Assembly (NCBI GenBank): GCA_037305845.1
Contig: CP147778.1
Span: 1,888,001 to 1,952,000, forward strand
DNA from: Candidatus Freyarchaeum deiterrae
GTDB lineage: Archaea > Asgardarchaeota > Jordiarchaeia > Jordiarchaeales > Jordiarchaeaceae
Reading direction: 5' to 3'
DNA: 64,000 nucleotides
Below the pieces are notes generated by a model. That model saw only the letters and a program-made list of their open reading frames with translations, had not been told where the DNA came from and did no database searches. This document shows, piece after piece, positions 1-4,794 of this stretch. How positions within the stretch are numbered: the stretch's first letter is position 1; each line of letters starts with the position of its first letter. The translations under genes were made by a program, and so were the position numbers.

Positions 1-20
1 ATGGATTTCTTTTCTACCAC

Positions 21-36
21 AGAAACTTATAAAAAG
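21..36 (+). promoter_or_regulatory. BRE/TATA promoter of tRNA-Leu
   Basis: AGAAAC followed by TTATAAAA about 40 nt upstream of the tRNA 5' end. Confidence 0.55.
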
Positions 37-73: not shown

Positions 74-267
74 GCAGAGATATCCCAGTCTGGTCAATGT
101 ATACGACTAAAGGAGTAGGACTGAGGTTACTCGGGTTCGAACCACTCGAGAATCAGAGCTCCTATGGCGCAGAAACTCTCTAGCCTTCTAGGGGTTTACG
201 TAGGCCTTCGGGAGTTCAATCAGTAGCAGAGTTCCTGTTGCTGGAATATATCTCCCTCTCTGCACCA
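74..267 (+). tRNA. tRNA-Leu(GAG) with four introns (98-110, 127-158, ~173-203, 220-249); CCA encoded
   Basis: Spliced 88-nt product GCAGAGATATCCCAGTCTGGTCAA/AGGAGTAGGACTGAGG/CTCCTATGGCGCAG/GCCTTCGGGAGTTCAA/ATCTCCCTCTCTGCACCA. Acceptor GCAGAGA:TCTCTGC, anticodon stem TAGGA:TCCTA, variable arm GGC:GCC, T stem GGGAG:CTCCC. BHB-type junctions; intron 3 is relaxed and its boundary ambiguous. Confidence 0.93.
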
Positions 268-372
268 TTTACATCTACTTTTTCAATGAAAAGGAGCGGA
301 ACGTGTAAAATAAGATTGTTGCAAAATCATATAGAGCATTGTTCAATATGGAAATCAAGGAGGTTTCTAGTC

Positions 373-648
373 ATGTTATTTTTAGTGATAAGCAGCCCAT
401 ATTCCTCAAAACCTGAAGATGTCAAAAACGCAAGATTGGAATTTAGGTCTTGGATTAAAGATTTGAAGTCAAAGAGCAAAGTGACCTGCTTCTATCCCAA
501 AGTAGGAAGGGGCTCCGTTGTAATTTTCGATGTCTCCTCAAATGATGAACTTCATAAACTGCTGACCCACTGGCTAAACATTGTACCCGTAAGTTTCGAC
601 ATTTACCCTTTGGCAACCCCATCGGAGGCGGAGGAGCTTTTAAAATAG
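373..648 (+). CDS. Small DUF3303/muconolactone-isomerase-like protein (91 aa)
   Basis: ATG at 373 (MLFLVIS...GRGSVVIFDVSSNDELHKLL...FDIYPL). The ORF-track extension to 238 overlaps the tRNA and is rejected. Confidence 0.65.
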   Translation: MLFLVISSPYSSKPEDVKNARLEFRSWIKDLKSKSKVTCFYPKVGRGSVVIFDVSSNDELHKLLTHWLNIVPVSFDIYPLATPSEAEELLK

Positions 649-681
649 GAATAGATAACATGGGATTGCTCGCACTATCGC

Positions 682-695
682 CGCGCGTACGCGCG
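682..695. repeat. Perfect 14-bp GC-rich palindrome CGCGCGTACGCGCG
   Basis: Self reverse-complementary sequence in an AT-rich intergenic region. Confidence 0.8.
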
Positions 696-903
696 CAGAA
701 CCATGAGCCAACATTTGACACTCACATCGTTCTTTTGTTCTGTATTTTGACAAAGTGCCGATACTTTCTTTTTGAGTTAAAAAAAAGCGAGAACGCACAG
801 TATTAAGACTTATAGGTATGTCCCGACTTGCACCGTAAGATGATCCAGAAAGCTCAAGTCCCTAAGACGCACCAGAGCCCTGAGCTTTTACTCAGAATTT
901 GAT

Positions 904-1092
904 TATCCTAGCCTGGTCAAAGTTTAACGACTAAAGGAGCAGGACTGAGGTTACTCAGGTTCGAACAACTCGAGAATCAGAGCTCCTGTGGCGCAGAAAC
1001 TCTCTAGTCCTTTTAGGGGTTTACGTAGGCCTTCACGAGTTCAATCAGTAACAGAATCCCTGTTGCTGGAATACATCTCGTCCTCCGCACCA
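904..1092 (+). tRNA. Second four-intron tRNA-Leu(GAG) copy lacking nt 1-7 (pseudogene or split-tRNA 3' piece); introns 921-934, 951-982, ~997-1028, 1045-1074
   Basis: Colinear with 81-267. Anticodon stem CAGGA:TCCTG, T stem ACGAG:CTCGT, 3' end CCTCCGC-ACCA. The complementary GCGGAGG is not immediately upstream. Confidence 0.8.
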
Positions 1093-1196
1093 TTCATTAT
1101 CTCCTATTTCTATCTACATCATTATACTTCTTCTTAAGAAAACTACAATATCGCAGCGGTTTTTTGGAAGGATAAAAAATGAGGGAGAAGACTTCT

Positions 1197-4100
1197 TTAC
1201 TGTCTTCGTAATAATGTTTCATGTATTCTGGTCAGGGTGTCTGGGTAGAAGACTCTCATGAGAATTAGGACTACTACCAGTAACCCGAATATAATAGTAA
1301 CTATTCTGCTCAGGGTGTCCATGTCAAATTGACCGCTAGCTGCATTTGCTGTGAGCAGTGACAAGATTGGAATGGGTGACGGTGGCGTTGGGGTAACTAC
1401 TTGGACTGTGAAACTTTCATTAAAGCTTCTACCAGCGTTGTCGGTCACATTTAGGGTGATATTTAGATTGCCGAGAGAACTCGGAGTTATCGGAAGCTCC
1501 GCAATCCCCGTATTATTGTTGTAGAATACTGTTGCATCATGGGATTCGCCATTTAAAAACACTGTTAGATTGGTTAAGTTAACCTGTGGAGTACTTGAAG
1601 CGTTGAAAGGTAGATATCTTACCCATATCTGCAAATTAAACGGTATTCCTAGAGTTAATGTTTCGTTAAGTGTAACATCTGGTTCTATTAGTCCCGCTTC
1701 TAATTGGTACACGTTGAATATGTAATAGTTCTGTGCTAGTGCCTGGTTGCCTATCCCCCTTATCATAATGTTATTACTTGAGTTCGTTGTAACTGATGCA
1801 ATGTATTCCCCAATATCTTGGGGGGTGAAATTTACGTTCCAGTTCTGGAAATCGGTTGTGTTTCCTGAATAATTAAACATCGTGCCGTTGGGGTTGATTA
1901 TGGTTACGGTCAAATTACTTGGGTTATCCAGTACATTTGTAATATTTAACGTGACTGATGTGCCCTTATAGGGCACGATGGTTGATGTAACATTCACTTG
2001 GGAGTAGAAGGTTATTGTAGTGTTCATTGTTTCTCCATTAGAAAGTTCTTGTCCTATGCTTGTAGAGTTGAAGGCGTTTTTGAGTATTGTTATCGTCTTG
2101 GTTATCGAATTTGTAAATGCCTCAGTCCAATTATCTGAAAGAAGGGTGCTGTTGAGAAATATTGTGTTAGCAGCGCTTTGGTTCGCTGCTGGATTATAGC
2201 TGACATACTCAGATTCCTGCGATAAGGAAATAGTCGCATTACTATGCGTATATATACTGGTGAATGTAGAGCCCGAGAATGTGGATGTGTTTGTATAAAC
2301 CATTTGAGCATTAATGGATGCGTTTAAACTGGTGCTGTTCCAATCCTGACTGGTTTGGTTCCAAGCCTTAAAAATTAGCGTAGCTACACCTGTGCTACTG
2401 TTGTATCCCACTTGACTGCTGGTGAAGATTTGACTCCAGTAACCTTGAGTACTGTTAACCATAGAGATATCGTTAATATAAAATAATGTATGGTTACTCA
2501 AGCCGTCACTGTAGTTATAGTAAAATAAATTGTAAGTTAGACTGTATTGGATATCCTTACTACTCGCCAGATTAAAGGTAACGATGCTTCCTGAGGCGTT
2601 TTGTATCGGGGTCCAAACAGTATCATTCCATACCCGATTACCGCCAACGAGTTTATTATTAACGGAGATATTGATACCACTCGTATCTGTCGAATTATAA
2701 GATGTAATCTGCATACACTGCCAGTATCTGTGACCGAACGGGTCTCGGACATCCTTCCAGTTCCAATTGCTAGAATTATCAGGGGTGGTCCATATTCCAT
2801 AGCCCTCTGGCGGAGGAATCTCAAATGCACTAGTATGGCTCGCCCAATCATAAAACTGACCGCTACTCGGATCTCCCGTCCAGTTTTTTGTATGAATTAC
2901 TAGGAAGTAATTTCCTTGTGAGAAATGACCTGTAAAGTTAAGAGTAAGCAAATTATAAGTTGAATTTACGTTCTGGTAAGGCACTTCCAAAGCGACACCA
3001 GTAACATTGCTGCTTAAATTATAAGCCCCAATTGATGAATCGAATGTAGCATTCCAAATCTCGGCAGTGAGGTTTTGCGTTAAACCTGTGGTGCGTAGTA
3101 TCAGTATCTGAATTGTGAGATTGTTCGAGTCATCCGGCAATGTGAACCTTTGAGCTTGGCTCACATTTCCAACGGTGTGTGCGAAGCCGTCTGAATTAGT
3201 TACGTTCTCAATAACGTGTAACTGTGAAACCGGAGTTATACTAGTAAAGTTGATGACGGCAAGATACATCCGATCCCCGTTAGGAATGATGACGTTGAAG
3301 CTACCTGTACCCCCTGTAATATTTCCAGTGGTGCTGCCTGCAATATTATAGTTAATATTACCTGTGTTATTAAAGACATCCACTGAGAGCTGATTCAAAG
3401 TCCAATTCGCTGGGAGCTGCAATGTCAATGTATACTGAAGCTTTGTTAAATTCATTATCATCCAGCAATTGAATGCAACTGAACTTTGAGACCAAAGATT
3501 GGTATCATTTATTTGTTCTATATCTGTGAAATTTTTCAGGTTGAGTGCTAATCCTCCGCTATTAGGAGTACATCCCCAAGTATAATATGTAGTATTGTCG
3601 CTTGAAGTACTAGTATTTAATCTTACCAATATGAAATAAGTCTGGCTTGGGTTCAGCTTAATGGTAGTTTCATTAAGTAGAGTAACCCAATTTCCACTGG
3701 CATTAAAACTGCTATTTGAGTACGTTTGACTTAGCAGAATAGCATCTGATGCGTTACTTGGCACCCACATCGAACCAATCAGGGTTCCATTCCTCAGCTC
3801 TACCCTAAAATCTGGAGGAGACGTATTATTATAGCCTATCCATAGTTGAACACCATTAAAGTATGTTGTAACATTTGAGGTGCTAAATGGCATGGCTACA
3901 GAACTGTTCAAGTTATCGTTCCAAGATATATTGAGATTATTTTCTGGCGGCCCGGTGAGATTACCTTCTATAGTATCCGAGGCCGTTTTATTTGTGATTT
4001 GAAACCATGTTACATTGTAATATGCTCCATTTATTTGGATTGTGGGGTCATTTGTAGTGCCTTTCAGTTGAGGGGGATTCATTTTTTGGCCTGCGGTTAG

Positions 4101-4211
4101 TGGAGATGCTACTGGCGTGTTGGTGGTTAATATGAATAGCATAGCGCATAGAAACAATACGCAAAGTACAAGCGCAATAGCCGCCTTTTTTCTGCTCTTC
4201 ATTTCAACCAC
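1197..4211 (-). CDS. Large membrane-anchored cell-surface glycoprotein (1004 aa)
   Basis: N-terminal signal/TM segment, N/T/S-rich beta-type sequence with very many N-x-S/T sequons, Pro-rich linker, C-terminal TM helix and basic tail. Confidence 0.8.
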   Translation of the reverse strand: MVEMKSRKKAAIALVLCVLFLCAMLFILTTNTPVASPLTAGQKMNPPQLKGTTNDPTIQINGAYYNVTWFQITNKTASDTIEGNLTGPPENNLNISWNDNLNSSVAMPFSTSNVTTYFNGVQLWIGYNNTSPPDFRVELRNGTLIGSMWVPSNASDAILLSQTYSNSSFNASGNWVTLLNETTIKLNPSQTYFILVRLNTSTSSDNTTYYTWGCTPNSGGLALNLKNFTDIEQINDTNLWSQSSVAFNCWMIMNLTKLQYTLTLQLPANWTLNQLSVDVFNNTGNINYNIAGSTTGNITGGTGSFNVIIPNGDRMYLAVINFTSITPVSQLHVIENVTNSDGFAHTVGNVSQAQRFTLPDDSNNLTIQILILRTTGLTQNLTAEIWNATFDSSIGAYNLSSNVTGVALEVPYQNVNSTYNLLTLNFTGHFSQGNYFLVIHTKNWTGDPSSGQFYDWASHTSAFEIPPPEGYGIWTTPDNSSNWNWKDVRDPFGHRYWQCMQITSYNSTDTSGINISVNNKLVGGNRVWNDTVWTPIQNASGSIVTFNLASSKDIQYSLTYNLFYYNYSDGLSNHTLFYINDISMVNSTQGYWSQIFTSSQVGYNSSTGVATLIFKAWNQTSQDWNSTSLNASINAQMVYTNTSTFSGSTFTSIYTHSNATISLSQESEYVSYNPAANQSAANTIFLNSTLLSDNWTEAFTNSITKTITILKNAFNSTSIGQELSNGETMNTTITFYSQVNVTSTIVPYKGTSVTLNITNVLDNPSNLTVTIINPNGTMFNYSGNTTDFQNWNVNFTPQDIGEYIASVTTNSSNNIMIRGIGNQALAQNYYIFNVYQLEAGLIEPDVTLNETLTLGIPFNLQIWVRYLPFNASSTPQVNLTNLTVFLNGESHDATVFYNNNTGIAELPITPSSLGNLNITLNVTDNAGRSFNESFTVQVVTPTPPSPIPILSLLTANAASGQFDMDTLSRIVTIIFGLLVVVLILMRVFYPDTLTRIHETLLRRQ

Positions 4212-4794
4212 TATTTTCTGTTAATTTATAACGTCATCATGAAATAGCCCATGTGATAGTTTTATTTGGGCGCTTTTCATTTTAAAGTCTTTGGATATTT
4301 TAAGAGGTTTATATTCGGTTTTGCTTTTATTTTTTTAGGTTTAATTAAGGGGTTTTTTGCTTATTATGGCTTGGTACTTTTACCAATTTTAGTTGGTTAC
4401 CCTCGTCATTTCCTATATGGTTCATTTCATGAAAGTTAATCCGTCTTGTTATCTCCTCTTTCCTGTTTTTGGGTCTTTCGATGAGTGCATTTTAATATTT
4501 TACATATAGTTGGTTTTTGGGATCGATAAAATTTTTTATTATGTTTATTTATATTTGTGTTTTTTAAATTTAAAATTTATTTTTTAAATATTTACGGCTT
4601 TGAAGCTCTAATCTCATACTCTTCGTTAAAAAGCTTTTATGGCCTTAAAAACAAAGCTATAATGCCCGAATTTCTTAATTTTCTTAACTACGCAAAGTGA
4701 AAATTTCATCCCTTCGTTTTTTATTACTTCGGCATTTAACGTGGGATTATAAATTGTAAAACGATAATTTTAAATAATTGAAACCAAATTCTTA

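Follow-up and report, generated by a model that had tools for sequence, protein, structure and literature searches.

Both partial tRNA genes beside insertions and tRNAs encoded in separate pieces have been described in archaea. In Caldiarchaeum subterraneum, tRNA-Thr(GGU) is associated with a tRNA fragment and a 1.8-kb insertion (Sugahara et al. 2012, PMC3293823). Known split tRNAs carry a promoter on both pieces, possess long complementary arms (13 nt in Staphylothermus), and are divided between 25/26 and 37/38 (PMC3218864, PMC4090602). For Freyarchaeum deiterrae, an Asgard archaeon with a genome in a single contig of 3,576,204 bp, read coverage was even across the genome and revealed no integrated elements (PMC11529989). 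Thirty-eight tRNAs have been tabulated for this genome, with the gene at 1888074-1888267 listed in the supplement as the sole Leu(GAG) (PMC11291895). We analyzed a window of 64,000 nucleotides (contig CP147778.1, positions 1,888,001 to 1,952,000 of the forward strand) in which this gene (copy 1) is followed by a partial Leu(GAG) copy (copy 2) that is missing from the published table. We consider it probable that copy 2 is the relic of the native Leu(GAG) gene, displaced by about 0.8 kb of DNA that brought a working replacement tRNA, and we are nearly certain that copy 2 is non-functional. The features of the locus are collected in Table 1.

Table 1. Features at the Leu(GAG) locus (positions are those of the window)
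Feature	Position	Strand	Basis or remark
BRE/TATA-like promoter element native to the Leu(GAG) gene, now preceding copy 1	20..36	+	Kept upstream of the single gene in orthologues; top promoter-matrix site in 1-1000
Copy 1, intact tRNA-Leu(GAG), derived allele, acceptor GCAGAGA:TCTCTGC	74..267	+	Introns 98-110, 127-158, 173-203, 220-249
Ribosome-binding region, apparently gained along with the DUF3303 gene	347..372	+	Match to the sequence upstream of the closest homologue, L027
91-aa DUF3303/muconolactone-isomerase-like gene, apparent lateral cargo	373..648	+	Pfam PF11746, E 8e-6
GCGGAGG within DUF3303 codons E-A-E-E, judged chance	628..634	+	GCAGAGG or GCAGATG in homologues; BHB register without an inner stem
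Non-coding spacer, missing from relatives	649..879	.	14-bp palindrome 682-695; weak truncated IS605/TnpB-type left-end match 837-863
Remnant of native exon positions 11-17 and most of the 17/17a intron	880..903	+	Match to L016/L019, also in L098 and L099
Copy 2, tRNA-Leu(GAG) positions 8-76, lacking the 5' acceptor strand, probable pseudogene	904..1092	+	Ancestral stems; introns 921-934 (21/22), 951-982 (37/38), 997-1028 (variable arm), 1045-1074 (58/59)
Native downstream flank, leading to a syntenic 1004-aa gene (1197-4211, minus strand)	1093..1200	+	L016 continuous over window 882-3975

The first-pass annotation of this DNA had recognized copy 2 as a second gene with the four introns of copy 1, and this description is correct. 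Window 904-1092 aligns with 81-267 from tRNA position 8 onward at 89% identity, and all four introns show BHB geometry in both copies; the variable-arm intron is relaxed, with a C.A mismatch in its helix. The mature copies differ at 10 of 81 positions. Both strands are changed at pairs 27:43, 49:65, and 50:64; the remaining differences are at bases 66 and 70, in the 3' strand of the acceptor, and at the single positions 13 and 16. The proposed co-variation of the stems thus stands for the three pairs, but not for C13/U13, which is one-sided, all orthologues having G13 there. As had been noted, GCGGAGG is absent immediately upstream of copy 2, and the nearest occurrence lies in a coding region.

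Polarity was set with ten lineages, namely four congener genomes and six further lineages represented by metagenomes and assemblies. All ten carry a single intact Leu(GAG) between the Leu(TAG)/RIO1 region and a large downstream gene. The orthologous gene starts with GCGGAGG in 10 of 10 lineages and ends with CCTCCGC in all nine complete ones; C27-G43 is invariant, and A49 and C50 are each kept in all but one lineage. These are the states of copy 2. The DNA before copy 1 corresponds to the promoter and leader of the orthologues, and that after copy 2 to their 3' flank (72%-78% identity to L016/L098 over the first 60 nt), so that approximately 0.8 kb now parts the native promoter from the native gene body. 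Given these starts, stems, and flanks, copy 2 reads as the ancestral-type gene minus positions 1-10 and copy 1 (74-267) as the derived working gene, a polarity opposite to that of the first reading. The claim that copy 2 comes from a once-functional gene is likewise supported.

The position of the break can be placed more closely with the nearest relatives. A fifth intron at 17/17a is present in the closest lineages (L016/L106, L098, L099, and L019), and F. deiterrae nests among these five-intron lineages on the RIO1-KH tree (100/98). Window 882-907 reproduces 22 of 26 bases of their exon 13-17 and 17/17a intron, with the BLAST alignment starting at 882. Therefore, the native remnant starts at about position 11 (window 880) rather than at position 8, and the sharp onset of similarity at position 8 that had been described holds against copy 1 only; with the nearest orthologues as reference, the onset is at about 880-882. 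Past the motif TATC, the orthologue intron ends in TCGAAA, and copy 2 runs on with CTAGCCT as a normal exon.

In both copies, the central introns most resemble those of the nearest relatives L016 and L098 (80%-93%). The T-arm and 58/59 intron of copy 2 share 94% identity with J. madagascariense and do not resemble the clade that contains this genome, and the D-arm of copy 2 differs from every orthologue. Both copies share a D-arm and T-arm unlike those of the nearest relatives. By a parsimony count, copy 2 has at most one lineage-specific exon change versus about six intron changes (Fisher p 0.04-0.24), a pattern consistent with function until recently. In a close relative (L105:1-1660), synteny stops about 30 nt short of the Leu(GAG) promoter. 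Beyond this point comes a degraded HEAT-repeat gene, which in F. deiterrae is best matched by the HEAT gene of the Ser(TGA) island discussed below (70% over 810 nt); this may represent a related island or a chimeric contig.

The inserted segment contains a gene of apparent lateral origin. With the 91-aa DUF3303 gene as query, no counterpart was found in five congeners; relatives are numerous (85%-89%) and lie in unrelated gene contexts, including L027, which is identical at 248 of 276 nt (90% DNA identity). The gene was apparently acquired laterally and brought its own ribosome-binding region. Two 151-nt cargo pieces from another study (run X9) have a depth of 2, too little to use. Neither copy 1-type sequence nor the cargo was found in the viral contigs, plasmids, or species genomes searched, and four pattern matches in another Asgard genus are at control level. 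The IS605/TnpB-type left-end match in the spacer is truncated and reaches an E value of only 0.043. Left ends of this type occur at five other genome sites, one of which precedes a 423-codon frame that appears TnpB-like by eye. The GC palindrome in the spacer is perfect, and run X6 carries a substitution and a 2-nt deletion there. A 9-nt direct repeat at 634-642 and 882-890 links the 3' end of the DUF3303 gene with the fifth-intron remnant and is possibly a microhomology.

We hypothesize that about 0.8 kb of DNA landed between the native promoter and position 11 of the native Leu(GAG) gene. The native gene would have lost positions 1-10 and become inactive, and its remains would be copy 2, a recent relic. 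The new segment would comprise, in order, a complete Leu(GAG) allele (copy 1), the DUF3303 gene, and the spacer, with copy 1 taking over the old promoter and providing the essential tRNA. Copy 1 presumably entered as part of the insertion, its source being a close relative or a mobile element; because its central introns are closest to those of the nearest relatives, the donor would be a close relative or an element having captured the gene within this lineage. Recombination may have been anchored in the upstream homology, with an illegitimate right end. It is also possible that a crossover occurred near 7/8, leaving the host GCGGAGG opposite TCTCTGC; the two G.U pairs in such an acceptor would have been repaired afterwards by two G-to-A changes. 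G3.U70 is the alanine identity element and would be selected against. Since this pairing can still form, the objection that the differing acceptor strands fit poorly with a simple attL/attR duplication is weaker than had been claimed.

Among the origins initially offered for copy 2, that of a gene with a displaced 5' end gains support from the native promoter before copy 1 and the native flank after copy 2. The synteny, the polarity, the foreign cargo not found in congeners, the soundness of the assembly, and the displacement itself can be regarded as demonstrated. Some features fit this history less easily: no donor of copy 1 was found, neither an integrase nor a clear core repeat lies at the insertion, copy 1 has an excess of exon changes (10/81, with another 2 in the 5' strand) that this history leaves unaccounted for, and the shared D-arm and T-arm unlike those of the nearest relatives require extra conversion events. 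Allele classes with several compensated pair differences do exist among close relatives at Leu(TAG) (L006:15665-15836 and relatives), where there are two such classes, discordant with the RIO1 tree. The Leu(GAG) 59/60 intron of the five-intron clade (L098, L016, L099, and L019) resembles the Leu(TAG) T-loop intron of other congeners (L003; about 24 of 30 bases by eye), which suggests copying between the neighboring Leu(GAG) and Leu(TAG) genes.

A less likely explanation, to which we give about a one-in-five weight, is in-place tandem duplication, after which copy 1 diverged and a separate insertion or deletion brought the DUF3303 gene and removed the first 10 positions of copy 2. In this case, too, copy 2 would be a relic, and conversion by copy 1 may have rewritten it from TATC on. 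The common kinship of the central introns with L016 and L098, the derived features shared by both copies over their whole length, and the exchange between Leu paralogues that apparently happens at the Leu locus all argue in this direction. However, duplication requires about 12 exon changes in the living copy versus 0-1 in the dead one (Fisher p 0.01-0.07), and no recognizable duplicated promoter precedes copy 2.

It is improbable that copy 2 is an element-borne tRNA fragment, that is, an att arm left by serial integrations, rather than the native gene. As at att remnants, a partial tRNA direct repeat lies at the far end of the insertion and the intervening DNA is foreign and absent from relatives; the J. 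madagascariense-like T-arm and 58/59 intron and the D-arm unlike all orthologues would also suit an outside origin. The native downstream flank, the ancestral stems, and the native-clade central introns speak against this reading and mostly contradict the earlier suggestion of a foreign fragment, although the T-arm does lie outside the clade. The fifth-intron remnant of the clade itself also lies directly upstream of copy 2. No ORF within or beside the insertion encodes an integrase, and in a search for integrases of the tyrosine type the single PF00589 match of the genome is 1.6 Mb away. The repeats shared at the insertion ends are TATCC, CAGAG, and AATTTG only (5-6 nt), and CAGAG and AATTTG were rejected as a crossover core for being too short and out of register. 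Joints of an excised or empty site were absent from four runs, in contigs that drop rare variants. The disrupted host tRNA with a complement of the same isotype fits the architecture of tRNA-dependent lysogeny if copy 1 arrived with the insertion, but no prophage with a tyrosine integrase is found at the Leu(GAG) locus.

It is very improbable that copy 2 is a trans-spliced 3' piece whose 7-nt 5' partner, encoded elsewhere, is attached at 7/8, although a trans-spliced piece was among the options of the first-pass annotation. The 3' half of a BHB motif does lie in register before 904, and an intergenic site at genome 2,397,504 (minus strand) has 14 of 15 bases of the predicted partner with a TATA-like site 38 nt upstream. 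However, a genome search gave 337 GCGGAGG sites, none of which pairs with the leader above background: the best, at -32.3 kcal/mol, equals the background quantile that corresponds to it, and no in-register stem is longer than 4 bp. The candidate at 2,397,504 was rejected, as a 14/15 match occurs in 18% of shuffles and the site prefers its own hairpin (-10.2 kcal/mol versus -5.2 for the duplex). An intact Leu(GAG) is already present 640 nt upstream, and a former cis intron accounts for the leader. The best promoter site before copy 2 scores 2.3, the random-DNA median, against 6.1 for the copy 1 promoter; the matrix is weak and read-through is possible. Apparent 5' tRNA fragments at genome 1,790,195 and 1,690,305 are in fact complete separate genes.

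Completion of copy 2 in cis by the GCGGAGG at 628-634 through a 269-nt intron can be dismissed for practical purposes: the minimum-energy fold does pair 628-635 with the acceptor 3' strand, but at a z of merely -2.0 versus shuffles, without an inner BHB stem, from within DUF3303 coding sequence, and with an intron far longer than those tabulated for tRNAs of F. deiterrae. A permuted tRNA finds no GCGGAGG directly after 1092, the next on the same strand lying near 2809. An assembly chimera of two strains, for which region 600-1100 had been singled out, is equally remote: two alleles of 89% identity do lie close together, but the contigs of four sequencing runs (which may be source samples) are 100% identical over 1-1300, one run X6 contig covers the whole 3 kb at a depth of 50 with no joints listed, and the overall genome topology was validated by long reads (PMC11291895).

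If copy 2 is the displaced native gene, it may also record an earlier change. We consider it possible, though less likely than not, that before displacement the D-arm intron of the native gene had moved from 17/17a to 7/8. The old exon 8-17 would have become intron and the 3' end of the old intron new exon, with exon repair probably by conversion from the neighboring Leu(TAG), whose TATC-CGAGCC-GG fits the slot exactly and has the same length. Joining orthologue positions 1-10 to the window from 880 onward gives a full HBh' motif with a 27-nt cis intron at 7/8. The motif has a 7-bp inner stem and the bulges GG^U and AU^U, and two of the pairs in its helix, CGGA:UUUG, are G.U. This geometry is that of the reconstruction only, the 5' exon being absent today, with -8.0 kcal/mol versus +0.5 for L016, and the earlier motif at 17/17a is disrupted. 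Such a move would mean that A9 and pyrimidine 13 in both copies were inherited from the old intron end, and would explain the conserved exons of copy 2. The 59/60 introns shared by Leu paralogues in relatives, at about 24 of 30 bases by eye, illustrate such exchange. Against the idea, most of the stem-improving changes are already present in five-intron alleles, and later conversion of the dead copy 2 from copy 1 yields the same sequence. A simulation with L016 as ancestor had given p 0.002-0.017 for selection on the 7/8 stem; it was withdrawn because L099 already has the A-to-G change and L098/L099 carry T at 17a, which leaves one informative substitution.

The review text searched does not name 7/8 among its intron positions, and the preprint bioRxiv 10.64898/2026.10.13.758758 leaves the route of intron arrival open, with the word-part 'slid' absent from its text. 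If true, the 7/8 reading would make the relic a fossil of one route along which Asgard tRNA introns shift, and of an intron position that we did not find reported, and would offer a concrete, testable repositioning route on the question that the 2026 preprint leaves open. It expects a single gene starting GCGGAGGTTTCTGAG, then TATCCTAGCC, in close strains. Introns at 8/9 and 9/10 are present in the F. deiterrae genome. In L075:1700-1950 and 4080-4370, the leaders of tRNA-Thr(CGT) (8/9 intron) and tRNA-Phe (9/10 intron) each duplicate the acceptor 5' strand; the duplicate is kept in congeners and is possibly a decoy that frees the BHB.

A second locus resembles the Leu(GAG) locus. At Ser(TGA), 20 kb separate the intact gene from a 112-nt copy of the 3' part (L062:10246-10383, L061:2107-2218; genome 1,598,107-1,618,383). 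Five congeners have one Ser(TGA), with an upstream flank matching the intact copy and a downstream flank matching the fragment, and the 20-kb island is absent from all five. Ancestral bases persist in the fragment, among them the acceptor strand of G002, the most similar congener, and the copy at the promoter has a changed acceptor pair, so to judge by these bases the locus has the same polarity pattern as Leu(GAG). The island encodes HerA-like, SNF2, DUF1156 (over two ORFs), DUF499, HEAT, and 1696-aa proteins, and no recognized integrase was found within its 20 kb. Both breaks lie in or adjoin the D-arm.

Further observations concern the surroundings and the gene inventory. The 1004-aa protein encoded at 1197-4211 has no Pfam match, is Asn/Thr-rich with N- and C-terminal hydrophobic segments, is syntenic in relatives, and is probably a surface protein. 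Within the window, ARAGORN reported zero tRNAs and Rfam just two sub-threshold matches; multi-intron tRNAs escape both. Other tRNA-like genes outside the table of 38 lie at genome 1,501,690, 1,547,180, 1,547,620, 1,647,848, 1,690,305, and 1,790,195, and at window 33594, and include apparent Ala(GGC), Phe, His, and second Met-type genes.

As a relic, copy 2 is a case of ordinary gene turnover and an addition to the published F. deiterrae tRNA table. It indicates that insertion and replacement continue to befall Asgard tRNA genes with a heavy load of introns; F. deiterrae shows two cases, in a genome for which read coverage revealed no integrated elements (PMC11529989).

When compared with known systems, the locus comes near to several of them. 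As in C. subterraneum tRNA-Thr(GGU), which we considered alongside pNOB8/SSV-type att remnants, a short insertion lies between a complete archaeal tRNA with introns and a partial copy of another allele. However, the fragment there is the 5' part and a recombinase is encoded, whereas the Leu(GAG) remnant is nearly full length (11-76), broken in the D-arm, and without a recombinase. In tRNA-dependent lysogeny, a host tRNA is likewise destroyed and an isotype-matched tRNA on the incoming DNA substitutes for it (Guerrero-Bustamante and Hatfull 2024, PMC10865867); here, in contrast, there is neither phage nor tyrosine integrase, and the replacement sits at the host promoter with intron sequences in common with the host allele. 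The displacement of T6SS immunity arrays by homology-facilitated illegitimate recombination, as proposed by Kirchberger et al. (2017, PMC5361080), shares an upstream-homology anchor and an old 3' part shifted downstream, although those are protein genes in bacteria and offer an analogy alone. Half a BHB motif before a tRNA piece recalls the split tRNAs of Nanoarchaeum, Caldivirga, and the Desulfurococcales (PMC3218864, PMC4090602), but the paired promoters, long arms, and 25/26-37/38 split of these genes were not found for copy 2. The multiple introns, many in the D-arm, agree with the non-canonical BHB introns of Asgard tRNAs (PMC11291895; bioRxiv 10.64898/2026.10.13.758758). Copy 2 works like the known displaced tRNA remnants that are accompanied by a replacement gene; the integrase expected of those families was not found, and neither was the separately encoded partner with long pairing arms that marks a split tRNA.
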